From contig OZ240248.1 of assembly GCA_965198235.1 (NCBI GenBank), positions 1,952,001 through 2,016,000 of the forward strand: a stretch of 64,000 nt of DNA, in the 5' to 3' direction. Positions 303-42,094 of the stretch are shown here, in pieces. A program made the position numbers and the translations under genes. A model generated the notes under the pieces. It saw only the letters and a list, made by a program, of their open reading frames with translations. It did not search any database and was not told the origin of the DNA. The stretch's first letter is position 1. Each line of letters opens with the position of its first letter. The stretch is from Candidatus Poribacteria bacterium. GTDB taxonomy: Bacteria; Poribacteria; WGA-4E; WGA-3G.

Positions 303-2492
303 TTAAATCGACTGAAATGCATCATAAATCTGCCGTGCTCTGTTTTCAACACTCCTTAAGTAGTTTTGACCTATTTGTTCGGTGTAAAGTTCGGTTAACT
401 CGCCACTTGCCTCACCGAAGGCTTTGGCGAAGTTCCGACACTCCTCCTTATCGCCACCAGAGGCGTAGGCTTTGGTTTTCGCATCTGTGCCGGATTTTCG
501 GACTTCAACACACTTATCACGAAACTTGAGATAACTCCCATCCCCGACAAATCTGACATCCTCAAGCGTTGTGAAATCCAAACTCGGAAGCGCATCTGAA
601 AGGATAACGCGTGCTTGTTCCACATCTATTTTCCCGTCGCGGAGGGCAATAGCGATACCGAGAAAAAACAGGTCGTTTTTATCACGTTTTGCCTCGCCTT
701 CGCGTTTCGCTGCACGGAGTTTTTCAGGATTCGGCTCAGACTCGTTGTAATAGGTGATGTCCTCTCTCACGTCACATGTCGCGCTAATTTGACTCTCCGC
801 AAAGACAACGGCGAGATAGTCAGAGAGGGATATATTTGCCTGTTTACAATGTGCAGCAAGTGCGGTAACCAGAACCATGGATTCACCTGCCGATTTTTCA
901 CGCATCGCGATAGCAGTGCGACCACCTTGGCTCTGGATGAGTTCCTCAGGACCGGTAATCATACCGCCGCTCTCTTCACCGGCGAAAATCAGTCGCGGTT
1001 GCACACCGAGTGAGATCGTCTCGCCGTAGACATCTTGAACAACAACCGGTGCGTCTGGCGCGTCAGCCAACTGCCGTTCAATCTTTTTCAGGATCGCGGC
1101 AATTTCCTTGAAACCGACAGGCACGTTAATGACCTTAACATCATTCGCAGCACCCCACTGATCCCAGGCGAGCGCGGAGGGTGTCGTCTTAATCATGAAC
1201 CGTGGATGATCTTCCCAAAGACCGGAAGTTTTGAGTTGCTTGGCGTAGAAGTCCATCAACATGAGAAACGCTTGATTCGGCGTGTAAATCGTCAAGAGTC
1301 GGTCATCACCGAGGTCGAGGAAGTCAACGCCGAGGGACTCCAATATTTCTGATCGTGATGTATCCTCTATCTCACAGACGATAAGCCGATCGCCATCTGG
1401 GTCGGTCGCTTCAATAATGGTCCCGATAGGCTGCGATTTGAGTTTCGTTGCGTAGTCTGTGGATTTGACGACATCAAGGATACTAAAGTCGCAGCCGAGA
1501 TCGTAAAATTCAGTTTCACCCGTTTTCGGATTCCGATCGAGTTTTCCGATGTTGTGATAGAGCGGGTCTGCCTCAACGTGGAGCCAGCGAACGGAGTTAG
1601 CGATTCCCAATCGCTCAAAAATGGCACGCATCGGACGATACATACACCCACCGACGCAATCGACGACGATAGATGGTTTCATCGCTCGGATGAGTTTGAG
1701 ATTCGCATCTGTGGCAACGCCGTCTTTGAGATAGCCGACATAGAGTTGTACACCGTCATGGAGTTCGTCCAGTCGTTCAAAATCGATGTGATCGTCGGTG
1801 GCCGCACTGAACTGAATTGAATAGCCTTCCGTTTCAGCGGTTTTGAGGATCTCTTCAATTTTGTTGACGAATCGCATGGATTCCTCGGGCAGATATTGAC
1901 TTCCCTGATTGTTGAGGTCTTTGGTAGCATTCTTTGTGCTGACGGAGTGGCTTGACGTGACATGTTCGCCACCGTCCAGATCAAGCATGAAAATCAAGAA
2001 GGATGCCATCCAGATGGGCAGCGTACCAAACGATTTCGGCATGTATGTGCGAATCCCTTGTGCAGCTTGGATGCGGGCGATGTATTCGACATATTTCTGT
2101 GAGTTGTAGCGTACCTCACAGCCCACGATTTTCTCAATCTGCTTTCCCTCCGCACTCTCGTTTGCAACAAGGCTTTTACCAAGCGTTGCGAGGGCAATTC
2201 CGATCTGGTTAATCGGGAAACGGGTGTCCCAAGGATACAAAATATTCTGCGGACCTCGGATACCGGCGGTCGAGACTTGTGCTTCCTTCGCGTAGTTACG
2301 AAACCACTCCCAGAGGTTCAAACGCTCAATCAGTTCCTTATCAAGTTGGAACGTGAAAGCATTTGGTTCATCTTGAGGAAAAAGGGCGGGTTTGATAGAA
2401 TCCGGCGTGTTCTGCTCAACCACCGCGAAGAGCTGCTGTTCGGTAAGGTCTCTCTTATGGCGATAGCCTTTGTCAACTGTGATAATCATCAA
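303..2492 (-). CDS. Phosphoglucomutase/phosphomannomutase (alpha-D-phosphohexomutase) family protein
   Basis: STAGIRG N-terminal motif, TSSHS phosphoserine loop, DPDGDR metal loop, GEESGG sugar loop, RKSGT C-terminal phosphate loop. Confidence 0.88.
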   Translation of the reverse strand: MMIITVDKGYRHKRDLTEQQLFAVVEQNTPDSIKPALFPQDEPNAFTFQLDKELIERLNLWEWFRNYAKEAQVSTAGIRGPQNILYPWDTRFPINQIGIALATLGKSLVANESAEGKQIEKIVGCEVRYNSQKYVEYIARIQAAQGIRTYMPKSFGTLPIWMASFLIFMLDLDGGEHVTSSHSVSTKNATKDLNNQGSQYLPEESMRFVNKIEEILKTAETEGYSIQFSAATDDHIDFERLDELHDGVQLYVGYLKDGVATDANLKLIRAMKPSIVVDCVGGCMYRPMRAIFERLGIANSVRWLHVEADPLYHNIGKLDRNPKTGETEFYDLGCDFSILDVVKSTDYATKLKSQPIGTIIEATDPDGDRLIVCEIEDTSRSEILESLGVDFLDLGDDRLLTIYTPNQAFLMLMDFYAKQLKTSGLWEDHPRFMIKTTPSALAWDQWGAANDVKVINVPVGFKEIAAILKKIERQLADAPDAPVVVQDVYGETISLGVQPRLIFAGEESGGMITGPEELIQSQGGRTAIAMREKSAGESMVLVTALAAHCKQANISLSDYLAVVFAESQISATCDVREDITYYNESEPNPEKLRAAKREGEAKRDKNDLFFLGIAIALRDGKIDVEQARVILSDALPSLDFTTLEDVRFVGDGSYLKFRDKCVEVRKSGTDAKTKAYASGGDKEECRNFAKAFGEASGELTELYTEQIGQNYLRSVENRARQIYDAFQSI

Positions 2493-29179: not shown

Positions 29180-29653
29180 CTAATCTTTTGTTGCTGATAG
29201 TTTACGCATTGCAGCGAGATACAACGCTTTGCTTTGATTCCCGAACGGTCCTGGATTGGTCGGGTTTTCTGGAAAGTGTGAGAACAGACTCGCTTCACTG
29301 ACTTCCTCAAGGTCGAGTGGGCTACCTAACGCCTCTATTTCTCCCAAATAAGCAATTCCCCAGTATTCGAGATTGAACATAAAACAGTGAATGTAACATA
29401 GCACTTCAAGATTTTTCAGCGTTGCACCCGTCTCTTCCAGAAGTTCTCGGTGTGCAGTTTCTTCAGCCGTTTCCCCGGGTTCGGCGCGCCCACCCGGCAG
29501 CGTCCAAATGTCGTTATCACGCCATTTGCAGAATAGTATCTGGTTATGTTGATGTGTGAGACAATTAACAAACTCAATTTTCCCTACGTCTGCCGGCGGT
29601 TTTCCGAAATAGAGTAACATGTAGCCATCTTGTTCCTCAATCTTTTGAACCAT
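29180..29653 (-). CDS. NUDIX hydrolase
   Basis: Nudix box GGRAEPGETAEETAHRELLEETG. Confidence 0.93.
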   Translation of the reverse strand: MVQKIEEQDGYMLLYFGKPPADVGKIEFVNCLTHQHNQILFCKWRDNDIWTLPGGRAEPGETAEETAHRELLEETGATLKNLEVLCYIHCFMFNLEYWGIAYLGEIEALGSPLDLEEVSEASLFSHFPENPTNPGPFGNQSKALYLAAMRKLSATKD

Positions 29654-29899
29654 CTTTTTCCTCTCTAAACACGAAAATCTACTATAGGTAACCTAAGTTG
29701 CACCTTTAGAAAAAAATTGCGTTTTTTGTAAATAATACTTATTTTTTCAGTTTCCTGCGTGAAGCATTACGGCATAGAAAGTATAACCCACACGCGGGAA
29801 AATTCATCAGAAAATTCGGCTATCAACTCCGGGAATTCGTGACAAAAAGCGCACAGAACGGCTCGAATCTCGCATTTGACAGAGCAAGACCGCTTTAGT

Positions 29900-30075
29900 T
29901 GCGTGCGCTAGTGTATAGTTTGCCACCTCAAAATCGTGGACACGATAAACCTCAAAGCCTGAGATAATCATAGCGGATGTCTCTGGAAGGTGTCTGAGGG
30001 CATTCTCGTAAGTCTTTTTTCGAGCGGCAGACAAAAACAAAGGTTATCCGAAAACATGTAATGCCTAATTCCAGA
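29900..30075 (-). pseudogene. Possible decayed DUF559/Vsr-like endonuclease remnant
   Basis: Across two frames: FVC.SKK...RDIRYDYL and SGFEVYRVHDFEV, resembling RD..L...GF.V.RF.N.EV. Confidence 0.25.
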
Positions 30076-30120
30076 GTCGGACAGTCGGGCAGATTCGGGT
30101 GTCTCTGATTTAGAAGTTCG

Positions 30121-30951
30121 CTAAACTTTAAAGGCGAGGTGGACATCTTGATGGACACAGATAGCGTTCTCGGTTACCTCACCGCTCTGCTCAAGAACCG
30201 TGAACCCATGACGCTCGAGTTCTAAACGCAGGTTCTCAGGGGTTGGGTAACGGCGTTGATGGATGTACCAAGCGTCGTTGACACAAATCGTCCCTTCATA
30301 GTCTTCGGGTCCGACACTGGGTCTGAAAGGATCTGGCTGAAATCGACTATAGCATATTTCCGCATCACTATCCCACAGCGCGTCTTGGTCAAAGCGGGTG
30401 TAAACTTTCCCTGTTGCGTTACCGACGATTTGTGTTTCGGAGTCCTCTCGATCCGGTTCAAAAACACAGCAGCTCATCAAAAAGTAGCCATTCTTAGCGA
30501 GTCGAGACTTGATTCCTGAAAACATGGCAACCCGATCTGGATCGGTAACCATGCTTTGTGAGCAAAAACTGTCAACAATGAGTTGGTATGACTTGCCTTC
30601 ACATGGAAGTTGACAAACATCTAACACCTCATATTGGATGTCTAAACAACACTCGGCGGCGATCGCTTTAGCTTTGTCAATGGCATCCGGAATAACATCA
30701 ATGCCATGGACGCGGTAGCCTAATTGCGCTAAAAAACATGCCACTGGACCTGTCCCGCATCCGAGTTCAAGAACGTGGACATCTGGTTTGATATTTAAGC
30801 GTGGTAAGGTCTCTACTAAGAAAGATTTGGAAGAGAACTCACTGAAGTCATTGGAGTTCTCGTAAAGTTCACCTCTTGACATGAGTCCCTTTGCCTTCAG
30901 CTCGGCGTAATCCGCCAGATGTTCGTGGTAAAAGTATTTTTGTTTCATCAT
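30121..30951 (-). CDS. Class I SAM-dependent methyltransferase
   Basis: VLELGCGTG, GIDV. Confidence 0.88.
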   Translation of the reverse strand: MMKQKYFYHEHLADYAELKAKGLMSRGELYENSNDFSEFSSKSFLVETLPRLNIKPDVHVLELGCGTGPVACFLAQLGYRVHGIDVIPDAIDKAKAIAAECCLDIQYEVLDVCQLPCEGKSYQLIVDSFCSQSMVTDPDRVAMFSGIKSRLAKNGYFLMSCCVFEPDREDSETQIVGNATGKVYTRFDQDALWDSDAEICYSRFQPDPFRPSVGPEDYEGTICVNDAWYIHQRRYPTPENLRLELERHGFTVLEQSGEVTENAICVHQDVHLAFKV

Positions 30952-31114
30952 CTGTCCAAGTTTGTAAGTTTGGGATTAATGTAAACAATAGTGTAATGAG
31001 AAACACTATTGAATAAATTTTCTGTTTTGTCTGTCTATTTGTGGTGCGTTCGTGCGCAACATAATTTTCGTCGATTTTATTATAGTAAAGCCCACAATTA
31101 CTTGAACATTGACA

Positions 31115-31141
31115 GTAGGCGAGGATACAATCCTCGCCAGC
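31115..31141 (+). repeat. GTAG REP palindrome
   Basis: GTAGGCGAGGA-TACAA-TCCTCGCCAGC perfect 8-bp stem; related copy inverted at 48278-48303. Confidence 0.65.
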
Positions 31142-31171
31142 GGCGGTGGGGGTGGTTCGCTGAACAACTGT

Positions 31172-31488
31172 CTACATATTTTCGGGCTTTAGTATAATTA
31201 GTTTCCTCTGAATGTGCGAGAGAGCAGAATCGAGGCAAAGGGAATGATCGGAGATGAACCTTTCCACGTTCTCCAGATTTTGAACATCTGATGATGGACT
31301 GTCGATAATCAGATGTGAGCCGGGCAAGATTTTTGTGGCTCCATTTTCCTCTAAAAAATCAACCAACGGAACGTCAACATAAATACCCGAAACTGGAAGC
31401 ACACAAGACAGTTCAGGAAATAGATGGTTGCCGTCGCGGTGAGGAAACTTTTCTACTTGGCTTCCGTAAGGAGCTGTAGCGACCTGCT
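31172..31488 (-). pseudogene. Internal fragment of a phytanoyl-CoA dioxygenase (PhyH) gene
   Basis: Startless frame ...PHRDGNHLFPE...VPLVDFLEENGATKILPGSH...; abuts the stop codon of the intact PhyH. Confidence 0.7.
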
Positions 31489-32256
31489 CTACGCCAACTT
31501 ACCACGTAGGAGTGGCTTGTCTTTCATCACCTCGCCATCGCGATTCCGCGTGCCCGATGACATGTAATGGAGGACCATCGCCCGACGGTCTCGGGATGAG
31601 CGGTTCGGGTCAGTTTGGTGGAGGGTCATGCAGTGGTGAACCATCCCGCATCCGGCTTTAACTGGCACTGGCACAGCACGATCTTCATCAGCATCCACCT
31701 CCAACAACGCCGGCAATTTACCTTTCTCTGACTCAGCACGTCCGTGCGATGCCAATCCTTCTAAATAACTGCCGGGGATAACGTTCATACAACCGTTCTC
31801 CTCGTCGGCGTCATCGAGTGCTATCCAGATGCTCACAAGATTGGGCGGGTCGCATTGCCAATAGGCGTTGTCCTGATGCCAATACACTTCACCGCCGTGA
31901 TAAGCGGGTTTGTAGAGAGCCTGATCATGGAATAACTGGATATCGGTTCCGATTAAACTCTCGGCGATGTCTAACAGGGGGTCGTGGTAGAGTAACTTCC
32001 GAAATTCCTTATCCAAACGCCACATCTCCATAATCTGTAACATTTCTTCAGCACGATCAGCGTCTTCATCGCTTTCCGAGTCACCGACGACTGCCAGGTT
32101 ACGCAATCCCTCACCGATTGTGTCGCGTTTCTCCGCAAACAGTGCGTCGTAATGTTCGCGTAACACGGTCAGGTGTTCGTCGTCAATGAGCCGTTCTTCT
32201 ATGTTGAGATAGCCTTCGCGTCTGAATTGTTCGACCTCTTGAGGTGTAAGTTTCAT
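31489..32256 (-). CDS. Phytanoyl-CoA dioxygenase family Fe(II)/2-oxoglutarate dioxygenase
   Basis: WHQD, WIALDDA.EENGCM.VIPGS, LH, RR. Confidence 0.93.
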   Translation of the reverse strand: MKLTPQEVEQFRREGYLNIEERLIDDEHLTVLREHYDALFAEKRDTIGEGLRNLAVVGDSESDEDADRAEEMLQIMEMWRLDKEFRKLLYHDPLLDIAESLIGTDIQLFHDQALYKPAYHGGEVYWHQDNAYWQCDPPNLVSIWIALDDADEENGCMNVIPGSYLEGLASHGRAESEKGKLPALLEVDADEDRAVPVPVKAGCGMVHHCMTLHQTDPNRSSRDRRAMVLHYMSSGTRNRDGEVMKDKPLLRGKLA

Positions 32257-32440
32257 AGTTTAATTGTTCCTTGCGGGTAGGTATCGGTATTTGTGCTTTG
32301 ACAATTTCCGTGTTTGAGTCGTCTGCGCCGTTGTTGCAGGCTTGTTTTCTGGTACAAGTTGCTAAACCCAGTTCAGACTTAACCAGATACCCGCAAGGAC
32401 AACGGACGCAGCGGTCCAAAAGCAATAAATTAAAAATCGG
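32257..32440. repeat. Composite repeat element with inverted CCGCAAGG ends
   Basis: TTGTTCCTTGCGGGTA (32264) is nearly complementary to TACCCGCAAGGACAA (32388); GCAAGGACAACGGACGCAGC (32393) recurs at 49390. Confidence 0.65.
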
Positions 32441-34763
32441 ATTCTTCAAGAATCTTTTGATATGTCTGCGATGCCACGTTATACGCCTCGCGGGCGGCAT
32501 CTCGCTCCTCTTCTCGGATGCGATCAACCTTTTCGTTCCAGCAGACTTCGACAGCCTCCAAACACCATTGCGCGCTTCTGCGACTTGCTCGGATCGGCTT
32601 TCCATCTACAATAACGAAGACCGGATTCGTATGAGACGACGGGAAAATCCGTAACGCAACCCAACTCGATCTCTCAATAGATGCCTCAAATTGAACAGGG
32701 ACGACGTCACCGTTAGCCACAATTTCTTGCCGCGCAACTGCCTGACCATTGACGATGAGTTCAAGAGGCACTTTCCGTTCTTCTGCAATACGAGCACGTT
32801 CAATATCCCAATACGGTTGCTGATCCAAAGGACGATTCTGTATCGCAGGGTTAGGTTCTTCATCAAGCCGTGCAGCGACGCGAGCGGTAAGGGTTACCGT
32901 GCTGGGTGCTTCCAGATCCAACTGGCTAATTTGTCCGGTCGGTGACTTTTCTCCAACCGGCACGCCACCGACGGTGAAGTCCAGCAAGTGACTTTTACCG
33001 TCTCCGACATAGGAACGCCCGTCTCGCAATCCTGCGACCCATGCATCGAAGTCGAGGGAACCGGCAGGCATTTTTACATATATTCGACCTAATCCCACCC
33101 GTTCGCCGTAAATGCAAGGGAAATCCGTCTCGCCACTGATTCGGGTGCGGAAACCACAGTTCAAGGTATGATACCAGATACTCAGTTCCCAAATGGCAGG
33201 TGTATCTACCGTGGATATGAAATCAACAGCGTCGTGAACGACATCCACGATATACTCATTAGCACCGATGCCATCAAAAGGGGGCATGTTGTAATTGGGG
33301 AGTTCGTCTCCATCCACTTTCAAACCCCAGCCGCTGTGACTGAAGCCTGTCACGGCTCCCTGTTCTTTCGCCCACTGAAGGACAGGGAGGTCCCAACTCG
33401 GCCATTCCTCAATGCGTTCAACACCTTTATAGTCGTCTTCAGTCAAAGCAAGCAACGAGAGATGTCCTGCGTGTGAGGAAGGAAAGCCCGATACCTCTAC
33501 GTCATAACGCATCACGTAGTCATCGGTCGAGAGTTCGTGGATTTTGCCCTCGAAAAACTCCTTCTGATAATACCAGCAGGGTCCCCACGAGAGTACACAA
33601 CCGACGTTGAGGTCCTCCCCGAGAATGTGTCGCATCATATCTTCCGGCGTGACACCCTCGGTGGGGCTTTCGTAGTGCGCACAACCCGCCGCGTGGACGT
33701 GATGATCCCCGGAACGCCAGCCTTCTGCTGCGATATGGATCCATCTTTCCAGACGGAATGTCTCTTGATGCGTTTCGATATTCGGGACGGTAATGGTTTG
33801 GGTCTTTACTCGGTATTCCGGTCCCCGTGTGTGCTCGACAGTATATTTGCCGGGTGGTAGAAGAACCGATTCGCCGTTGTGTCGATAGATTTGGTTATGA
33901 AAGAAAAAATCGGGTGCCAATCGTCGCCCGCGTGATGGATACACACGGTTCAATTCGTCACGAATGATAAAAGCGGCGGTTGTCGGCTTTCCGTCGAAAT
34001 CTAATACTTCTAAAGTTACCTTTACCGCTGGCACACAGTGGAATAGGATAGGGACTTCACTGCGGAAGCCGATATCCTGTGTTCCCTGACCGACATTGAA
34101 ACCAAGCATCGCTTCCCGTTTCCCCGCATCGCGGCTATAGAGTTGGACAATACGATACTCCAATTCCAATCCCGAAAGGCTCGCCTTCAAGGGTGGGTTG
34201 GAATAGACCTCAATATCGAGAAACCGGTGCGGAATATCGCTTTTGGGCACCGTCATCTGCGGGTCAGGGCTTCCACTGGAACGTTTATAAAGCGGGGCAG
34301 CATTCTCACTCTCAGCAACTAAAGGTGCTGTCACGCCAGCCTCGTTGTGTACCTTTACTAAAAAGGTACGCCAACCCTGCTGCATCAGTTCCTTGTCTAC
34401 TGGACCTTCCTTAACCTTCACACGGCTCTCAGGGTTGATATTGACACCGGTCAAACAGTATGCGTCAAGAGTTTTTTGAATGTCAACAATCGCCTGTTTA
34501 TGGTCATCGGCAACCAAGGCTTCCTTGATTGCGGAAAGATCGTCTTCAGATAGGGGTGAACCGAGATAGTCCAACGCCTCAATGAGTCGTTGGGTCGCTG
34601 AGGCGAACGGTTGAAACTCCACTTCAGTGACGAGGCTCAATTCATCGGTGAACCCCACCGAAGTGAAAGTGAGAAGCAATATCCAACTGATAAGTGTCAA
34701 GTAGAACAGTCTACAGGTTCCTTTTTTTCCAAGAGTGTTGTATCCATTTGTCGTCCATCGCAT
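32430..34763 (-). CDS. CehA/McbA-family metallohydrolase (PHP-like), secreted
   Basis: Hydrophobic N-terminus; G.Y.V..TRGPEY, GWRSGDHHVH, SHSGWG, GETDFPC, HTNP. Confidence 0.85.
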   Translation of the reverse strand: MRWTTNGYNTLGKKGTCRLFYLTLISWILLLTFTSVGFTDELSLVTEVEFQPFASATQRLIEALDYLGSPLSEDDLSAIKEALVADDHKQAIVDIQKTLDAYCLTGVNINPESRVKVKEGPVDKELMQQGWRTFLVKVHNEAGVTAPLVAESENAAPLYKRSSGSPDPQMTVPKSDIPHRFLDIEVYSNPPLKASLSGLELEYRIVQLYSRDAGKREAMLGFNVGQGTQDIGFRSEVPILFHCVPAVKVTLEVLDFDGKPTTAAFIIRDELNRVYPSRGRRLAPDFFFHNQIYRHNGESVLLPPGKYTVEHTRGPEYRVKTQTITVPNIETHQETFRLERWIHIAAEGWRSGDHHVHAAGCAHYESPTEGVTPEDMMRHILGEDLNVGCVLSWGPCWYYQKEFFEGKIHELSTDDYVMRYDVEVSGFPSSHAGHLSLLALTEDDYKGVERIEEWPSWDLPVLQWAKEQGAVTGFSHSGWGLKVDGDELPNYNMPPFDGIGANEYIVDVVHDAVDFISTVDTPAIWELSIWYHTLNCGFRTRISGETDFPCIYGERVGLGRIYVKMPAGSLDFDAWVAGLRDGRSYVGDGKSHLLDFTVGGVPVGEKSPTGQISQLDLEAPSTVTLTARVAARLDEEPNPAIQNRPLDQQPYWDIERARIAEERKVPLELIVNGQAVARQEIVANGDVVPVQFEASIERSSWVALRIFPSSHTNPVFVIVDGKPIRASRRSAQWCLEAVEVCWNEKVDRIREEERDAAREAYNVASQTYQKILEESDF

Positions 34764-34809
34764 GTGGCATTCCTCCTAATCATTGATTGGTTTTTATCAC
34801 TAATGCCGT

Positions 34810-34838
34810 AGTCTATCATAATGTAGAGTGAATGTCAA
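34810..34838 (-). promoter_or_regulatory. Sigma70-type promoter of the CehA/McbA gene
   Basis: TTGACA-17 bp-TAGACT with extended -10 TG. Confidence 0.55.
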
Positions 34839-34855
34839 GTTCACAGTTGTCTGAA

Positions 34856-35572
34856 TCAAGTCACATGATAGTCCACACCATATTGCACCAAACCTAATCG
34901 TTGGGCTACACGTTGAGAAGCCACATTGTCCCACGAAGTACTATAGAGAGGAATGCAGTTCAAGGCACGGACAGCAAGTGCCCAAGCAGCGACAACCGAC
35001 GTTGCATGCCCACGCCGACGATAACCCGTTAGCGTATCAACGCCTGCTTCATGGGCTCGTGATGAGAGGCGGACACTTCGGCAAATTGACACCGCCTGTG
35101 AATCTTCTATAATTGCTAAATAGGGCTGCGAACTATTTAGTTCTGACACCATTTCGGCGAAGTCTCCCTTTAAGAGTCCTGCATTCTCACATGATAGTCG
35201 GACAACATTTATTGGTGGTGTAATATGTTCAGGAAAGCGATAAGCGGGTCCGATCCAGACTCGTTCAATGGGTGCATAACTTTGAAGAATATCCTTGAAT
35301 TGCCTATGGCTCTTTGGAATTTTCTCGGAGTTCACAAGCGTCGGTTCAGCATCAGCGACTTCCTTCAGTTGCGCAATCACGTTGTCCGGAAGGTCATGCC
35401 GGAACCTACATATTGAACCTTTAGTGGTGTATCCAAAGAAAAAACGAGGTGCTGATTCTGCAGCACCGGTAGGTTCGTTGATACGTTGAAGGCATCCGTT
35501 TTCATCCAGCGTGAATAGCACTTCAACTTGTATTTTCATCAGCTCTTTGTTAGATGCATCATGTTCCCTCAT
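34856..35572 (-). CDS. GNAT acetyltransferase (GNAT_acetyltran type)
   Basis: EAGVDTL..YRRRGHA, YSTSWDNVASQRVAQRLG. Confidence 0.88.
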   Translation of the reverse strand: MREHDASNKELMKIQVEVLFTLDENGCLQRINEPTGAAESAPRFFFGYTTKGSICRFRHDLPDNVIAQLKEVADAEPTLVNSEKIPKSHRQFKDILQSYAPIERVWIGPAYRFPEHITPPINVVRLSCENAGLLKGDFAEMVSELNSSQPYLAIIEDSQAVSICRSVRLSSRAHEAGVDTLTGYRRRGHATSVVAAWALAVRALNCIPLYSTSWDNVASQRVAQRLGLVQYGVDYHVT

Positions 35573-35604
35573 TGATCTGCTTACTCTCCAGTATAATGCT
35601 TCTC

Positions 35605-36333
35605 TTAAACCGTTTTTCTATGCCCGCTAACATTGTTGAAGTTTACTAAGGCTTTTACGTACGCGGTTGTGGATTTGCGTAAGCGTTCAATCCGTTCCTT
35701 GGGAATAGGTCCGCTATCCTCCTCAATACACAGATCGGATATGACGCGGATGCCGACGTATTTGATGTTATTAATCGCACAGACATCCACAATCGCCGAT
35801 GATTCCCAATTCACTGCGACGGCTCCACTCTCTACAGCAATTTTGTCCCTAACTTCACGATTGTATATGTCCATATCTCCGCAAATTACGGCGGCTTTTG
35901 TAAGCGTAACATTGGGATCCGTTGATAGCGTGTCTGCGAATTTGCTTATTGAAGATGAAGAAACCTGAAACAAGCGTTCCCGCCATGTCTCTTGCTCACG
36001 CTGAATCTCTGATCGATTTGGCACGTCGTGTTCAGAGACACCAGTAATCACAACAATGTCTCCGATATTCAAGATATCGACCAATCCACCGGCAAATCCG
36101 AACTCAAAAAAGGTGTCTACCTGATACTTTTCTATTATCAGTTGACACATTGATGCCGCACGCACTTTGCCCATACCCGACTGCATGATAACCCATTTTC
36201 CGTCTCCATCAAGCCATTCAAATTGCAACCTGCTATTCCAGTCAACCGAATCACCTACCTCCTGACCCAGGACGTTCAGAAGCATACGAGTTTCGTCGGC
36301 GTAAGCCGTCATGATACATAGTTTTGCACTCAC
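35605..36333 (-). CDS. MTA/SAH nucleosidase-like protein (PNP_UDP_1 family), divergent
   Basis: SGMGKV.AA, GFAGG, IGDIV, CGD, AVNWES, RVISD. Confidence 0.8.
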   Translation of the reverse strand: MSAKLCIMTAYADETRMLLNVLGQEVGDSVDWNSRLQFEWLDGDGKWVIMQSGMGKVRAASMCQLIIEKYQVDTFFEFGFAGGLVDILNIGDIVVITGVSEHDVPNRSEIQREQETWRERLFQVSSSSISKFADTLSTDPNVTLTKAAVICGDMDIYNREVRDKIAVESGAVAVNWESSAIVDVCAINNIKYVGIRVISDLCIEEDSGPIPKERIERLRKSTTAYVKALVNFNNVSGHRKTV

Positions 36334-36443
36334 AGATTTTGCTCCATAATTAAATGAGGGATGCTTGTAATTGAAACTGCGTCAGGATATTGGAGGATCA
36401 TCTCGATTCCAGAGTTTACCAACAAGATCGCGATTTTAACTGA

Positions 36444-37664
36444 TTAATTGCTCATTTTTTGAAATTCACAGTAACTCTCATACCGAAACTTCGAGATGTC
36501 CCCTTTTTTCAGAGCATCTTCCACTCTGCAACCTTCCTCGTAAATATGCGTGCAATGATTTTTCATACAACGCTCTCGTAGTGAGTTCATCTCTGGAAAA
36601 TAGCGGTCCATCAAGCGAGGCTCGATGTCCCAGAAGTGCAACTCGCGAAGCCCCGGTGTGTCGGCGATAAAACCACCGAAATCCAAGTTGTAAAGTTGGG
36701 TTGCAACGGTCGTGTGTCTTCCGCCCCGTCTCGGATTCACTTCGTTCGTTTTCAATTTCAAATTGGGTTGAATGGCGTTCAGAAGTGACGATTTTCCGAC
36801 CCCGGATAATCCAGTGAGTGCTGAAATCTTTCCTCTCATCCACGCTTTCAAATCCTCGATTCCCTCGCCAGTCGTTGCACTCGTAAGGGTTGTCCGATAA
36901 CCGATTTTCTGATAAACTGCGGCTATCGGATCCACTTCCGATCGGTTTTTGAGCATGTCAATTTTATTGAAACAGATAAGTGGTTCAATTCCTGATGCCT
37001 CGGCGATAACAAGGAACCTGTCCAGCATTCGCTGCCAGATTGGTGGTTCTTTTACAGAAGAAACGATGATGAGCCCATCAAGATTCGGAATCAGAATAAC
37101 GCCTTTGGATTGTGTTCCCCCTCGTTTAAATTGGCTCTTGCGCCGCAGAACGGCTCCAATCGTACCATGCGTTTCATCAATCACCTGAATTTTGACGCGG
37201 TCCCCAACATAGACCTGCTGATTTGTGCTAAATGCATCTCGTTTTCCGCGTAGCGAACATTGATATCGATTCGCATCGCACTGCACGATGTAAACACCGT
37301 TGCTCGCACGCATCACGATACCCTCGGGAAGTCCGATCAATTTTTCGTTATCGAAAAGATAGCCTGTCCGTTTGAGGAGTTCCTCGTCCGGTATAATTCG
37401 TGCGGCTTTGATGGCACTAAGATGCCTGACCCGGTCTTTGACAAGCATCTTCTCTGATTTGAGGAGCAAAGCGACAACGACTGGTTTGTCTTCGTCATCA
37501 CCAAGCGCGTTCTCCGCGTCCCGAATCGCTGGATTCATACCGAGATAAACCTTGCTATAGGTGACACGCTCTCGCCAATCAAAAGCCGAGTAATCGCCTG
37601 CAATAATCTTTTCCGCTTCGATTAAAGTTGTGCCTGCGTAAACAGACATTGCCATAGGTTTCAA
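36444..37664 (-). CDS. rsgA: RsgA ribosome small-subunit-dependent GTPase with an extra ~110-aa N-terminal domain
   Basis: OB fold (VGDRV), circularly permuted NKID / GLSGVGKSS / GRHTT / DTPG, C-x4-C-x-H-x5-C zinc finger. Confidence 0.9.
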   Translation of the reverse strand: MKPMAMSVYAGTTLIEAEKIIAGDYSAFDWRERVTYSKVYLGMNPAIRDAENALGDDEDKPVVVALLLKSEKMLVKDRVRHLSAIKAARIIPDEELLKRTGYLFDNEKLIGLPEGIVMRASNGVYIVQCDANRYQCSLRGKRDAFSTNQQVYVGDRVKIQVIDETHGTIGAVLRRKSQFKRGGTQSKGVILIPNLDGLIIVSSVKEPPIWQRMLDRFLVIAEASGIEPLICFNKIDMLKNRSEVDPIAAVYQKIGYRTTLTSATTGEGIEDLKAWMRGKISALTGLSGVGKSSLLNAIQPNLKLKTNEVNPRRGGRHTTVATQLYNLDFGGFIADTPGLRELHFWDIEPRLMDRYFPEMNSLRERCMKNHCTHIYEEGCRVEDALKKGDISKFRYESYCEFQKMSN

Positions 37665-38031
37665 TTACCTTTGTTTTGTCTACCCCAAATCACCGCGAAT
37701 TTTCGCGAATGATTCAAAGGAACGTTCGTTAAGACTCTGATAAAACGTGATAATCTTTCACTTACATACAATTTTGGATGCACTTTAGGGAGCATCGCGT
37801 GAACGATTCAAGGTTCTTTCGCTGCAACTAACCTGACATTGTAAAGCGTCACATGTAGTTTGCTATGCCCTGATTTCATAGAAAGTGTAAAAAGCTTCAA
37901 TAGAGCATTCCGGACGCAAAATCTGATTTAAAAAATAATCTAATAAAAGTTTAACCCAGAGGTTTTAAAGGGAATCACTTTAAATTAAAGAGCTACAAAA
38001 CAATAGGATTCACGCAGTGTGCTGATTTTTC

Positions 38032-38060
38032 TTGACGTGTTTTACGAAATTGGTTATTCT
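38032..38060 (+). promoter_or_regulatory. Sigma70-type promoter in the AT-rich divergent intergenic region
   Basis: TTGACG-17 bp-TATTCT upstream of the oxidoreductase. Confidence 0.45.
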
Positions 38061-38231
38061 TTTGATGAGCGAAGAATTGATCGAATGCGATAGAAGGATC
38101 CATCGAATCACTGTTTAACATTTAACGAAAAACCTTGGAATTTTGTAGCCGAGGTAACTAACAAATTTTTTGTTGAATGATCTGAGTTCTATGAGTTTCA
38201 TTTCAATTGATTGAGGATAAGGAGAATACCG

Positions 38232-39311
38232 ATGAAAACATATCGTGCCGCTGTTATCGGTTGTAGCCGGATGGGTGCATTTATTGATAACGAAGTCCCC
38301 GATTACGAAGCGATTAAGTTACCTTATTCCCATGCTGCGGGCTATTTTGCCGAAGAACGAACTGATCTGGTCGCATGTGCGGATCTGCGTCCAGAAGTGA
38401 TGGAACATTTTGGAAACCGATATAATGTTCCAAAAGCGAATCAATACACCGATTATCGTGACATGCTTGAAAAAGAACAGCCTGATATTGTCAGTGTTGC
38501 CACACAACCCGAGCATCGCGCAGAAATTGTTATTTACGCAGCAGCGCACGGCGTGAAAGCCATCTATGCAGAAAAGGCGATGGCGGCTTCTATGGACGAA
38601 GCAGCAGCCATGGTATCTGCGGTAGAACAAAACAAGGTCGCCTTTAACCTTGGCACAAATCGCCGGTGGCATACAGGTTTTGACAAGATGAAAGAGATCA
38701 TTGACAGTGGTGAAATTGGTAACCTACGCACCTTGATTATCTATTCAAACAGTACGCTTTTCAACTCAGCCAGTCATAACTTCGATCTAATTTTACGTTT
38801 GAATAGCGATGCGTCTGCGAGTTGGATCACAGGTTATCTTCCACAAGGCGATTCGGTTTTTGATGGGAATGTGCTGCAAGCTGATCCGGCTGGGGCGGGA
38901 ACAATCCAGTTTGAAAATGGTGTGATGGCACACGCACTGCTAACGCCACGTAGTAGTGAATGGGAAGCAATTTGTGATGGCGGAACCGTTACATGCTGGA
39001 ACAACGGTTGGCAGTGGCATCTCCGTAAACAGCAAGATGTACCCGGGTGGAGGACATGTCAGGTACCTGAAACCTTTCCTGCATTTGAACGCGCCAGTAG
39101 CACAGCAAACTTGGTTAAAGACCTTGTTCACGCATTAGATACAGGGCAACCGACCCGAGGCGGAGTCCGGTGCGCGTATGCCAGCACTGAACTGATTTTT
39201 GGCATAATTGAATCGCATCTACACAACGGCGCACGTATTGAACTGCCGTTGAAAGACTCAAGAATCCGTTTACAAAGAAACCCGTCTGCAAGACAACCAC
39301 GGGTCGAGTAA
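38232..39311 (+). CDS. Gfo/Idh/MocA family oxidoreductase
   Basis: AAVIGCSRMG, YTDYRDMLEKEQPDIVSVAT, AEKAMA; AAGGAG RBS before ATG 38232. Confidence 0.92.
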   Translation: MKTYRAAVIGCSRMGAFIDNEVPDYEAIKLPYSHAAGYFAEERTDLVACADLRPEVMEHFGNRYNVPKANQYTDYRDMLEKEQPDIVSVATQPEHRAEIVIYAAAHGVKAIYAEKAMAASMDEAAAMVSAVEQNKVAFNLGTNRRWHTGFDKMKEIIDSGEIGNLRTLIIYSNSTLFNSASHNFDLILRLNSDASASWITGYLPQGDSVFDGNVLQADPAGAGTIQFENGVMAHALLTPRSSEWEAICDGGTVTCWNNGWQWHLRKQQDVPGWRTCQVPETFPAFERASSTANLVKDLVHALDTGQPTRGGVRCAYASTELIFGIIESHLHNGARIELPLKDSRIRLQRNPSARQPRVE

Positions 39312-39372
39312 TCATAGCAAGCCTGGAAGTGTACTCCTTATAACGGATTGAAGATTCAGACAATTTTGGGTG

Positions 39373-40320
39373 TCAATCAAGAACTTCAAGGGACGCTTGC
39401 CGAATATCGTCCAATTCTTCAGCACTGAAGACACCCGCTCGGTAGAGATTCCGGTACTCTTCGGAGACGCTCTGACCGAATATCATCAGATCGTCCGTGT
39501 TAATCGTCACGGGTACGCCGTTGTCATATAAGGCGCGAATCGGATGGGAGGCAAGATCGGACACACCACCCAACATCACGTTGCTCGTTGGACATACGTT
39601 CAATTGTATCTGATTTTCAGACAACCATTGCATCACTTCAACCGATTCTGCAGCACCGATGCCGTGCTGTACCTCGTCTAAATTCAAGACTTCGACGGTT
39701 CGTCGGACCTCTTCCGCCCCACCGAACTCCCCGACATGTGCTTTGCGCTTCATCCCCGCAGCGCGTGCCTTGACATATAAGGACTGGACGGCTTCAGGAT
39801 CACATGCCTCTTGATGGCTATACAGATCAATCGACTGGAATATGTTTAATTCTGTTGCTTCGTGCGCCAATTTCATCCATTTTGGGTCGTCAGCACACTC
39901 CCGCGCAAAACCGAGTTCAGGACGCAAATCAATCTGTTCACGATACCGCTCAACTAACATTTCAATAAATGAACGAAGTTCGGCCAATCCATCTGGATAG
40001 AACTTAACTAACCGGATGTCGAAACTCATTTCAAGGATAACAACACCATCTTGGACTGCATCATTCATCGCTGACACCGCAATGAACTCAAAACCTTGGC
40101 GGTGGTTTAAGTGAGGGTCTAAAGCAGCATCTATGTATTCCATCATCCCGCCAAGTCCTTTCATTTTGAGAGGTGGTTTGGTTAGCGGATGTCCGAGCCA
40201 ACGCTCTGCATTCTCTCGACGTGTACTTAAAAAAGAATGGGAGTGAACGTCGATTTTAGGGGCTGCTCTTATAGCGGTCAAGTTATCTGTGGAGAGTGCT
40301 TCAACGAAATCAGTAGACAT
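39373..40320 (-). CDS. Adenosine deaminase family protein
   Basis: PKIDVHSH, AHVGE, VQHGI, CPTSN, TINTDD; start moved to ATG 40320 because the longer ORF begins inside a REP. Confidence 0.88.
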   Translation of the reverse strand: MSTDFVEALSTDNLTAIRAAPKIDVHSHSFLSTRRENAERWLGHPLTKPPLKMKGLGGMMEYIDAALDPHLNHRQGFEFIAVSAMNDAVQDGVVILEMSFDIRLVKFYPDGLAELRSFIEMLVERYREQIDLRPELGFARECADDPKWMKLAHEATELNIFQSIDLYSHQEACDPEAVQSLYVKARAAGMKRKAHVGEFGGAEEVRRTVEVLNLDEVQHGIGAAESVEVMQWLSENQIQLNVCPTSNVMLGGVSDLASHPIRALYDNGVPVTINTDDLMIFGQSVSEEYRNLYRAGVFSAEELDDIRQASLEVLD

Positions 40321-40350
40321 AATATCAAATTCAGAAGTATAAGGAGTGGC

Positions 40351-40506
40351 GTAGGTTGGGTTGAACGAAACTAAGAAGGACGATGTTGCCACCGCAAAGG
40401 GGTCTCAACTCCAATATCCCGTCATATAGACTCAAGGAGGGAGTGAAACCCAACTTCATACCGTCATATCTTGGCAACACGATATGAAAAGCGTTGGGTT
40501 TCACTC
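40351..40506. repeat. Expanded GTAG REP (GTAGGTTGGGTTGAACG...GAGTGAAACCCAAC...GTTGGGTTTCACTC)
   Basis: 14-bp perfect inverted repeat GAGTGAAACCCAAC / GTTGGGTTTCACTC and a GTAG start. Confidence 0.7.
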
Positions 40507-40581
40507 AGTATCTATCTGATATGACGTGTATAGGTAGAAGCTTATTTTTCTGTAAACTGTAAGATTCTTGTGGGACAGGAC

Positions 40582-41355
40582 CTATATCTCTTTCTTCGCG
40601 ACAACGGCAAAACTGACGTTGTAAGCCATTTCATGTGTCCAACTCCCCGGCGCAGCGTCAATATCTGGCTGGGTCCAAGAACGTTCCTCAACCCGCTCAA
40701 TCCGAAAACCGTTGTCCAAGAGTCCGTTAAATATATCGCCAAGGTAGTGTCGAAAGTCGAATGCGCCGTCTGAATACCTGAAAACGCGCTCAGAATACGG
40801 CTCGGTAACACGATAGGATTCACCATCCCATTCCCAAAAATGATTGGCAGGATTGCCAAAATCCACGCGATACTGACCTCCCGGACGGATGATTCTTGAT
40901 ACACCGCTATACACTTCATGGACAGATGGAACCCAGTTCATGGAAGGTCCTTGATAGACGAGGTCAAATGATGCGTCTTCAATTGCGGACAAATCGCGGA
41001 TATTGAGGCGATGCGTTTCCATCTGATAGCCGTAATGCTTCGCGGCAGTAATGTCCCCGTCAAGCTGACCTTGCGTAAAATCAATGACAGTTACACGGGC
41101 GTCAAGCAGACCGAACACCGCTGACTGTTGTCCGCCACCTGCGGCGAGACACAACACGTCCTTGTGTGCAACATCCTTGAGCAGATATACGGGGTAAATT
41201 TGGTAGAGATGGTACGGAACTGAGTCAAGCCGATCCTCAGTATACTTTAGAATCTCATCTCTATCAAGGTCGAGCCATGGGACGGTAAAGCCGTTCTTCC
41301 TTAATACCTCGGCTTCCCAATGCGCTCGATTAGCAATAGTGATTTCGTCATTCAT
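40582..41355 (-). CDS. Class I SAM-dependent methyltransferase
   Basis: VLCLAAGGGQQ, VTVID, SFDLV. Confidence 0.88.
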   Translation of the reverse strand: MNDEITIANRAHWEAEVLRKNGFTVPWLDLDRDEILKYTEDRLDSVPYHLYQIYPVYLLKDVAHKDVLCLAAGGGQQSAVFGLLDARVTVIDFTQGQLDGDITAAKHYGYQMETHRLNIRDLSAIEDASFDLVYQGPSMNWVPSVHEVYSGVSRIIRPGGQYRVDFGNPANHFWEWDGESYRVTEPYSERVFRYSDGAFDFRHYLGDIFNGLLDNGFRIERVEERSWTQPDIDAAPGSWTHEMAYNVSFAVVAKKEI

Positions 41356-41386
41356 TGGGTTTCATAATAAGGTCTCCAGAGATACT

Positions 41387-42094
41387 TCAACTGGATTCAT
41401 CCATCGATAAATATGACCTTGCTCCATTTATAGACAAATCGGCTCTTTCATAAGGCAAATGAGTTTTAACATAGTCATCTTCTTTCGGCATCCAATCCTG
41501 TTCCCAAATGGTGCGTGCCTCTTCTCCATCTCGCGCAATGCCACGGGCAAGACGGATTGCTCTGGGGCACTTCACCCATATTTTCAAATCGTATAGATCC
41601 GTTAACTCACACCTCATCGTATAGACACCCTCAACAAGCACCACGTCAGACGTAGAAATTGTATGCCACTCTGTAAGGACATCTGCCTCCCAATCGTATC
41701 GCTGGTAATAGACTAACCGTCCCTCTCTGACGGGAATGAGCACCTGATCGCGTAGACGCTCCCAATCAAAGTCGCAGCCAATCATCCCTGCTTGCTGGTT
41801 TTCACGTTGATCAGAAGGGTGGTAAAAATCATCATGCTTAACGACAGTCACGACCCAACCCAAAGTACTTAGCTGTTGTTCCAACAGTCGCGCCAAAGTA
41901 CTTTTTCCAGCACCGCCAAGTCCATCAATAGCCACAAGCAGACAGGCTCTTTGACGTTGGAGCATCTTCAAACAATTTACGATGTTCGCGGGCGACTTGA
42001 AATCCACGTCTCCGGTTCCCTTCTGTTTGAGATCCAGACAAATCTGCGAGGTCTGCAAAGTAATTATGTAGACCGCAGGACTATCCACAGTCAA
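41387..42094 (-). CDS. Uridine kinase-like P-loop kinase
   Basis: AIDGLGGAGKST, HDDFY, YQRYDW, VEGVY, RGIARDG; start uncertain. Confidence 0.85.
   Translation of the reverse strand: MTVDSPAVYIITLQTSQICLDLKQKGTGDVDFKSPANIVNCLKMLQRQRACLLVAIDGLGGAGKSTLARLLEQQLSTLGWVVTVVKHDDFYHPSDQRENQQAGMIGCDFDWERLRDQVLIPVREGRLVYYQRYDWEADVLTEWHTISTSDVVLVEGVYTMRCELTDLYDLKIWVKCPRAIRLARGIARDGEEARTIWEQDWMPKEDDYVKTHLPYERADLSINGARSYLSMDESS

Follow-up and report, generated by a model that had tools for sequence, protein, structure and literature searches.

An RsgA paralog of Poribacteria preceded by a conserved domain of predicted ADP-ribosyltransferase-like fold

RsgA is regarded as a housekeeping checkpoint factor built of three domains. 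The 64,000-nucleotide stretch of a Candidatus Poribacteria genome analysed here (contig OZ240248.1, positions 1,952,001 to 2,016,000; hereafter the window) encodes an RsgA in which a further domain of about 105 residues precedes this core, and the predicted structure of the additional domain resembles that of ADP-ribosyltransferases (ARTs). The open reading frame (ORF) of the fusion covers 36444-37664 on the reverse strand, with the stop codon at 36444-36446, and comprises 406 amino acids (aa) when read from TTG at 37664. The likely start is the ATG at 37655, giving a protein of 403 aa that begins MAMSVYAGT, since most relatives are 400-403 aa long and begin with MAMSVY, MPKSVY or MGRCVY. No strong Shine-Dalgarno sequence precedes this ATG, and an AAGG is found about 12 nucleotides (nt) upstream.

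The RsgA core is complete. Its OB-fold domain (Pfam RsgA_N, PF16745; 35.4 bits against a cut-off of 27) lies at 37158-37325 on the reverse strand (residues 114-169 in 406-aa numbering), followed at 36630-37151 on the same strand by the circularly permuted GTPase domain (RsgA_GTPase, PF03193; residues 172-345 in 406-aa numbering; 178.4 bits against a cut-off of 30, 1.5e-52) and at 36447-36629, again on the reverse strand, by the C-terminal zinc-finger domain. The model of the whole RsgA family, TIGR00157, is matched with 214.9 bits (cut-off 100). The GTPase motifs stand in the order G4-G1-G2-G3 (NKID 230-233, GLSGVGKS 282-289, RHTT 313-316 and DTPG 332-335, in 403-aa numbering) and, together with the zinc knuckle, are invariant or nearly so among 15 aligned family members. 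The knuckle, C-x4-C-x-H-x5-C at 36528-36569, is formed by C363, C368, H370 and C376, each nearly invariant in the 15 sequences and aligned to solved RsgA chains. In 403-aa numbering, alignments to solved RsgA/YjeQ/YloQ chains set in at residues 103-125 and continue to the C-terminus, and the first ~100 residues have no counterpart in any of the 13 PDB sequences that matched. From the placement of the Pfam domains and the start of these alignments, ~105 extra residues precede the core, close to the 110 or so described in an earlier, sequence-only reading of this DNA. The model NF008931 aligned from residue 71, yet with 210.5 bits against a cut-off of 360, which is not taken to show homology of residues 71-110 to the N-terminal extension of Escherichia coli RsgA.

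The additional domain (N-domain) occupies 37347-37655 on the reverse strand, residues 1-103 of the 403-aa form, as judged from an AlphaFold2 model, fold searches and the ratio of nonsynonymous to synonymous substitution rates (dN/dS). It is joined to the OB fold by a linker at 37326-37346 (reverse strand, residues 104-110) that is modelled with low confidence (predicted local distance difference test, pLDDT, below 50). For dN/dS, the window gene was compared with 37 genes from Poribacteria genome records, none of which was dropped, and 702 of the 703 pairs were used. Over these 38 genes, the first 110 codons had a median of 0.115 and the remaining codons one of 0.129; the extension is coding sequence under purifying selection as strong as that on the GTPase core. 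The N-domain is recognisable in relatives at 69%, 51%, 40%, 39%, 38% and 35% identity, and at 33-35% in a divergent one (on metagenome contig L081). Across 11 sequences reaching down to 35% identity, 13 positions are invariant (M1, Y6, G8, A14, G20, D21, F25, A47, L63, K83, R86, E92 and T97), and E48 is kept in ten of them. In addition, three studies of sponge metatranscriptomes provide RNA-library contigs that cross from the N-domain into the core and extend 55-90 nt past the ATG, which lends the extension weak support, as DNA may be carried over into RNA libraries. These contigs do not cover 37975-38175, a gap that is not readable either way.

The sequence-only reading had suggested looking for a canonical rsgA elsewhere in the genome and for the same fusion in other genomes, and both were found. 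Three RsgA paralogs are encoded in this genome: a canonical form of 317 aa, a form of ~330-356 aa with a basic tail, and the fusion. The two others are located at L001:1246-2316 (reverse strand) and L002:1279-2232 (forward strand), and the tail that ends the ~330-356-aa form is strongly basic (…KRRTDRNTRRRKR). In its core, the fusion shares 45% identity with this second paralog and 38% with the canonical one. Five genomes of the same genus that lack the fusion (94-96% complete, three of them in a single contig) each hold exactly two RsgA genes, which match these two forms. The fusion gene is an accessory and dispensable third RsgA paralog with a patchy distribution.

A profile of the N-domain matched 51 of the 176 genomes of the phylum, one false match and one remnant included, with 42 of 64 genomes in genus g1, six of 20 in g15, one of 40 in g6 and the single genome of g9. 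The false match, in genome G041, is a DNA methyltransferase of 758 aa. The remnant, in genome G044 (L033:8236-8469, reverse strand), is what is left of a decayed fusion gene: an ORF of 77 aa corresponds to N-domain residues 1-74 only, and degenerate sequence and an ilvD-like gene come after it. Among GTDB species representatives, 39 loci were found, of which 36 are titled Poribacteria, two 'uncultured bacterium' and one is a metagenome-assembled genome of Latescibacterota. A search of 1.84 billion representative proteins gave 14 matches at E 0.001 or better, and nine of these are RsgA fusions or short fragments; the four that were inspected (P0121, P0122, P0125 and P0129) are RsgA fusions or pieces of such fusions, and P0123, P0124 and P0126-P0128 are short fragments. 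The other five matches, an M23/DUF3597 protein and four cadherin-like giants aligned over multiple short stretches of residues ~6-48, were taken as chance inflated by repeats. In the first of them, P0130 (632 aa), five repeats of the DUF3597 type (…Y.GTSLVEALKSIGVDSSF…) accompany an M23 peptidase, and the match of this protein to N-domain residues 6-32, with an E-value of 7.7e-7 summed over the repeats, was likewise judged to be chance.

The divergent fusion on contig L081 (453-1787, forward strand) bears VYFGT in its N-domain and GVRKS instead of GVGKS in its P-loop. It lies directly upstream of a paralog of the basic-tail type (1788-2144, forward strand), and this tandem arrangement hints at an origin by tandem duplication and, judging from the altered P-loop, at a possible loss of GTPase activity in that lineage. 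The higher core identity of the window fusion to the basic-tail paralog (45% against 38%) is a further hint that this type was the one duplicated.

The fold of the N-domain was predicted with AlphaFold2 for the window protein (model 1) and for P0125, a relative of 51% identity with the motif VYHGT (model 2), from alignments of 10-11 sequences. Model 1, based on ten sequences, reached a pLDDT of 79.6 and a predicted template modelling score (pTM) of 0.74, and is composed of a strand (residues 3-10), two helices (11-18 and 40-49), two strands (58-65 and 82-87) and a final helix (90-97). The five models of P0125 agree with one another (pLDDT 71-76) and have the same order of elements. From the motifs, the sequence-only reading had anticipated this order of strands and helices, as well as an H-Y-type ART fold like that of the Tpt1/KptA C-terminal domain or Arr; both models show the former and, at the level of a predicted fold, the models and structure searches agree on the latter. 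Model 1 was aligned to 48,161 representative PDB chains without the Foldseek prefilter, and the best 50 matches were listed. Cholix toxin (Z 5.9, root-mean-square deviation (rmsd) 3.1, 92 residues aligned), Arr (Z 5.8, rmsd 5.2 over 89) and KptA (Z 5.7) came at the top, with exotoxin A, PARP16, diphtheria toxin, PARP13 and TreTu in the rows that follow. ART, PARP, Tpt1, Arr or diphtheria-group titles account for 32 of the best 50 matches listed, and most of the others, such as RES toxins, Tne2, MbcT, IcmQ, the CNFy domain, Scabin and CARDS, we take to be ART-fold toxins or NADases. For model 2, the leading matches were Arr (Z 6.6, rmsd 5.1 over 88), diphtheria toxin (5.9), cholix toxin (5.7), exotoxin A (5.7) and KptA (5.3), and 30 of the best 50 matches listed have ART titles.

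Foldseek pointed in the same direction at low significance, with Arr (E 0.65) and Aeropyrum pernix Tpt1 (E 0.74) as its best for model 1 and A. pernix Tpt1 (E 0.23, probability 0.63) as its first for model 2. When the 199 best Foldseek chains for model 1 were re-scored, the NAD+ lobes of Tpt1/KptA came first (Z 5.2-6.1, rmsd ~3.2 Å over 78-88 residues); these matches cover chain residues ~90-180, i.e., the whole lobe, and Arr scored Z 4.8-5.8. In a protein language model, the nearest named clusters were Arr-ms and Tox-ART-HYD1, both at 0.92, with the 30 nearest clusters unnamed and rows of this type often due to chance. The alignment to Tpt1 motifs put forward in the sequence-only reading was reproduced by hhalign in the same register, yet with a probability of 8.5% (E 0.004, 83 columns, colinear, against a profile of 59 Tpt1 sequences): VYAGT falls on LYHGT, KVYL on VHLS, KPVVVAL on PVILxV and IKAARIIP on VYLAxxVP. 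Against a single Tpt1 the probability was 19.5%, and it was highest, at 38%, with an ORF of a related genome that bears WHGT. Homology to Tox-ART-HYD1 found no support by the same method (probability 0.55% with a five-sequence alignment).

The three motifs that the sequence-only reading had pointed out are present as described, and so is the Ala in place of the NAD-binding His. VYAGT (37629-37643, reverse strand) forms strand 1 and is the counterpart of the HGT motif of ARTs and Tpt1, in which Y6 and G8 are invariant and T9 is nearly so. The window protein, with Y-A-G-T, lacks the His of the clade's motif 1 (H-G-[ST]) and retains its Gly and Thr. At the His position, Ala is found in 37 of 38 close genes and Val in the remaining one, while A, V, S, H, Y and F all occur across the family. 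In KVYLG (37539-37553, reverse strand), Y37 is placed by the low-probability hhalign alignment on the second His of the Tpt1 triad H-H-V, which equals the Tyr of H-Y-E, and the family has Y, F or H here; this would correspond to motif 2 of the clade, where an aromatic residue or His stacks on the distal ribose or binds it. The KPVVVAL strand (37467-37487, reverse strand), aligned with Tpt1 PVILxV, has a nearly invariant P58 and an invariant L63. No invariant acidic residue is seen in the sequence alignment on strand 58-65, where the Glu, Asp or Gln of ART motif 3 would be expected. P0125 lacks the loop that aligns with the diphosphate-binding Arg of Tpt1, and the GRR segment is variable. According to a study on TRPT1, its HGT motif uses His and Thr to hold the adenosine ribose and His and Gly to bind nicotinamide (PMC10415124). 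Since the NAD+-binding His is replaced by Ala at a position free of constraint and the acidic third residue has no evident conserved counterpart, the N-domain appears to be a catalytically degenerate pseudo-ART. Classical ART catalysis is unlikely, and these motifs show the pattern of a catalytic site freed from constraint while its scaffold is conserved. Taking fold, motifs and distribution together, the reading to which we lean by a modest degree is that the fusion is a specialised, dispensable RsgA in which a degenerate ART-fold domain acts as a binding module.

Before this reading is weighed, it could be argued that the extension is not translated at all, the true start lying near residue 105-110 with the frame upstream open by chance. 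The weak Shine-Dalgarno context of the ATG would suit this view, as would promoter and terminator scans around the fusion that remain at chance level (four found against 3.5 expected). A start near residue 110 together with an unconserved extension had also been named in the sequence-only reading as what would overturn its proposal. Yet the dN/dS of 0.115 over the extension, its cover by RNA-library contigs and an open, conserved frame with the same N-terminus in relatives of 33-40% identity all speak for translation, and the open frame measures 402-421 aa in 48 of the 51 matching places, the others being 434 aa in G029, the 77 aa of the G044 remnant and the 758 aa of the false G041 match. An untranslated extension is already contradicted by these comparisons, and its probability is next to nil. 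In a second view, the additional residues form an alpha/beta domain that is specific to the lineage and has no relation to ARTs; the AlphaFold2 models would be wrong or convergent, and the domain would simply add a contact to the 30S subunit, like the short N-terminal extension of E. coli RsgA. Several points weigh against the binding-module reading, and those that concern the fold favour this second view. No structural Z score exceeds 6.6, and a Z below 8 may mean merely a common arrangement; no Foldseek match reached E 0.001 for either model; the alignments behind both are shallow at 10-11 sequences; and one of the five window-domain models is confident, the remaining four having pLDDT values of 66, 56, 39.5 and 37.7. 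Sequence methods were not significant either: no Pfam family matches the N-domain at an E-value of 0.1 or lower (the best being Exotox-A_cataly at E 0.15 in one of ten family members), the matches of the N-domain to PDB sequences are at chance level (E 0.39), and the hhalign probabilities range from 0.55% to 38%. Moreover, residues 1-20 of E. coli YjeQ are required for tight 30S binding, as stated in PMC9032327. On the other side, two targets of 51% identity yield one strand and helix order and match lists from 48,161 chains that are near-wholly ART, which would be unexpected of a generic fold, the language model points to the same families (with the caution already given for such rows), and the hhalign alignment, though not significant, is colinear over 83 columns and sets motif on motif. 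Because ART entries are nearly exclusive in two independent match lists despite the low Z scores, an ART-like fold of the H-Y-[EDQ] clade, nearest to the Tpt1/KptA NAD+ lobe and Arr, is considered the best reading of the models and is held with good, though not full, confidence; an unrelated alpha/beta domain is improbable.

If the fold is accepted, the degenerate module has to be set against an active enzyme with a variant site, which RsgA would deliver to the decoding centre for NAD+-dependent modification (ADP-ribosylation or another) of 16S rRNA, a ribosomal protein such as S12 or a bound factor. A single motif position is the basis for assuming that catalysis is lost, and some ART-fold enzymes function with variant triads. 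The ART-fold matches themselves, the continued conservation of Y6, G8 and T9, selection as strong as on the GTPase core and the VYHGT of one relative (P0125) can all be read in favour of an enzyme. In TRPT1, according to PMC10415124, the H-H-V triad merely binds NAD+, and the RNA lobe contributes part of the catalytic Arg-His-Arg-Arg; the lack of an acidic residue would therefore not be decisive. Against an enzyme stand the released constraint at the His position, with Ala in 37 of 38 close genes and A, V, S, H, Y or F in the family, and the Tpt1 diphosphate-Arg loop, which is deleted in P0125 while the GRR segment varies. In addition, no macrodomain, ARH or NADAR gene for reversal is found within 24-51 kb of the window, and there is no conserved partner gene. 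We regard an active enzyme as quite improbable; still, the retained Y6, G8 and T9, the VYHGT relative and the existence of variant-triad enzymes make ligand binding or unusual chemistry by the N-domain possible. A further weak point of the binding-module reading concerns the ribosome, as binding of the 30S subunit by this paralog is predicted from family membership.

Compared with known systems, the fusion is closest over most of its length to RsgA/YjeQ/YloQ (TIGR00157), whose full length, with OB fold, permuted GTPase and zinc finger, is matched by residues ~108-403. It differs in the folded domain of ~105 residues before the OB fold and in being a dispensable third copy. For the N-domain, the NAD+ lobe of Tpt1/KptA (PF01885) is the best re-scored structure match (Z 5.2-6.1) and, in the low-probability hhalign alignment, has a colinear motif order of xYxGT, xV[YH]L and PV[VI]L, with IP or VP after the last strand. 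Unlike Tpt1/KptA, the N-domain starts at strand 1 of the NAD+ lobe, without the RNA lobe that bears Arg-His-Arg, has Ala for the His of HGT and does not conserve the diphosphate-binding Arg; PF01885 has no match in the N-domain or anywhere else in the same genome. Arr (PF12120), with its triad H-Y-D, resembles the N-domain as a small, minimal ART fold and ranks at or near the top for both models, but with an rmsd of 5.1-5.2. The N-domain has neither a PF12120 match nor the triad His and is fused to a GTPase, whereas Arr is free-standing. Finally, the C-terminal domain of PARP13/ZC3HAV1 and the pseudo-PARP domain of TASOR offer a parallel in which the ART fold is kept and the NAD-binding His is replaced (structure matches at Z 4.9-5.0 and 3.2, respectively). 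The ART domains of both proteins are catalytically inactive and serve as binding modules; they are eukaryotic, larger and set in another protein context.

As described in PMC9032327, RsgA clamps the top of helix 44 (h44), with its OB fold touching h18 and h44 and its zinc finger touching the head, and prevents joining of the 50S subunit until it is released by GTP hydrolysis. Given its family membership, and as all GTPase and zinc motifs are kept, the RsgA part of the fusion would most likely still dock on the decoding-centre side of the 30S subunit. A domain directly before the OB fold would then sit at the shoulder, on the decoding-centre side, a placement suggested by the known contacts of the OB fold and by the role of the N-terminal 20 residues of E. 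coli YjeQ. The degenerate pseudo-ART may add a contact to rRNA or to a ribosomal protein near h18/h44. Alternatively, its pocket may hold an NAD-derived or other nucleotide ligand and in this way tune the residence of the protein on the subunit. Room for ligand or RNA binding is left by the retained Y6, G8 and T9, the invariant D21, K83 and R86, and E48 in ten of 11 sequences. Either binding role would give the paralog its specialised, dispensable function.

It could further be speculated that the ART-fold domain is functional in a stricter sense, binding NAD+, ADP-ribose or a signal nucleotide, or modifying the decoding centre, and that the fusion is a ligand-gated or enzymatic ribosome-silencing switch parked on the 30S subunit under stress or phage attack. 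Such a switch would fit the patchy and decaying distribution and the effect of E. coli RsgA on T4, since overproduced E. coli RsgA inhibits T4 and T2 through ribosome inactivation, according to PMC10475562. We consider such a switch improbable. The roles put forward in the sequence-only reading, namely ribosome modification, sensing of ADP-ribosylation or anti-toxin defence, are conjectural. For the locus itself, PADLOC returned weak P-loop matches only (E 0.002 or worse) and no defence-system context, and no mobile-element context was found.

Full-text literature searches returned no description of an RsgA-ART architecture, in line with the sequence-only reading, which knew of none; a mention in the main comparative review of the ART family is possible. 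The novelty lies in a familiar GTPase that carries a domain not annotated before, whose probable fold, as predicted by the models, is that of ARTs. The N-domain defines a family of ~100 residues that no Pfam model matches, and the fusion family is almost wholly limited to one uncultivated phylum, where a clade of sponge symbionts carries it. If the fold prediction is true, an ART scaffold would naturally be brought to the decoding centre of the small subunit, an architecture that the literature searches did not find in print, and the fusion offers a tractable test case for the reuse of pseudo-ART domains as RNA- or ligand-binding modules in bacteria. Should any activity remain, it would represent a novel way of linking ribosome control or modification to NAD. 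The interest is moderate, as the degenerate-looking catalytic site, the predictive nature of the fold evidence and the near-confinement to one phylum are set against an unexpected and testable architecture.

An unusually long AT-rich spacer of 546 bp (37665-38210, GC ~0.34-0.44) separates the fusion from a divergent Gfo/Idh/MocA oxidoreductase gene and presumably contains the promoter of the fusion, although promoter motifs in it do not exceed chance; Rfam has no match in 36300-38400. Around the fusion, a loose cluster of nucleoside and nucleotide genes extends over 29180-42094. It includes a NUDIX gene (29180-29653), a PNP_UDP_1 phosphorylase (35605-36333), an adenosine-deaminase-like protein (39373-40392) and a PRK/uridine-kinase-like protein (41387-42094). 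Within the same interval lies a 777-aa ORF (32430-34763, reverse strand) with no Pfam match at E 0.1 or better that is 87-89% identical in four genomes of the genus. The PNP_UDP_1, GNAT, 777-aa, Gfo/Idh/MocA and adenosine-deaminase-like neighbours are syntenic within the genus only and are rearranged or decayed in some genomes, the PNP_UDP_1 gene being missing or split in some of them. None of these neighbours is found beside the fusion in the more distant genomes G029, G053 and G038. The fusion has no conserved partner genes, and a functional link to its neighbours is rejected. One of these distant genomes, G053, encodes the WHGT-bearing ORF that gave the 38% hhalign probability with the N-domain (L027:1237-2088, forward strand). 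This ORF of 284 aa contains WHGT, KIWFT and PAIFHCQI in that order, matches PF01885 at E 9.6e-4, below the cut-off, and may, by its motifs, represent another unannotated small ART-like domain in the phylum.

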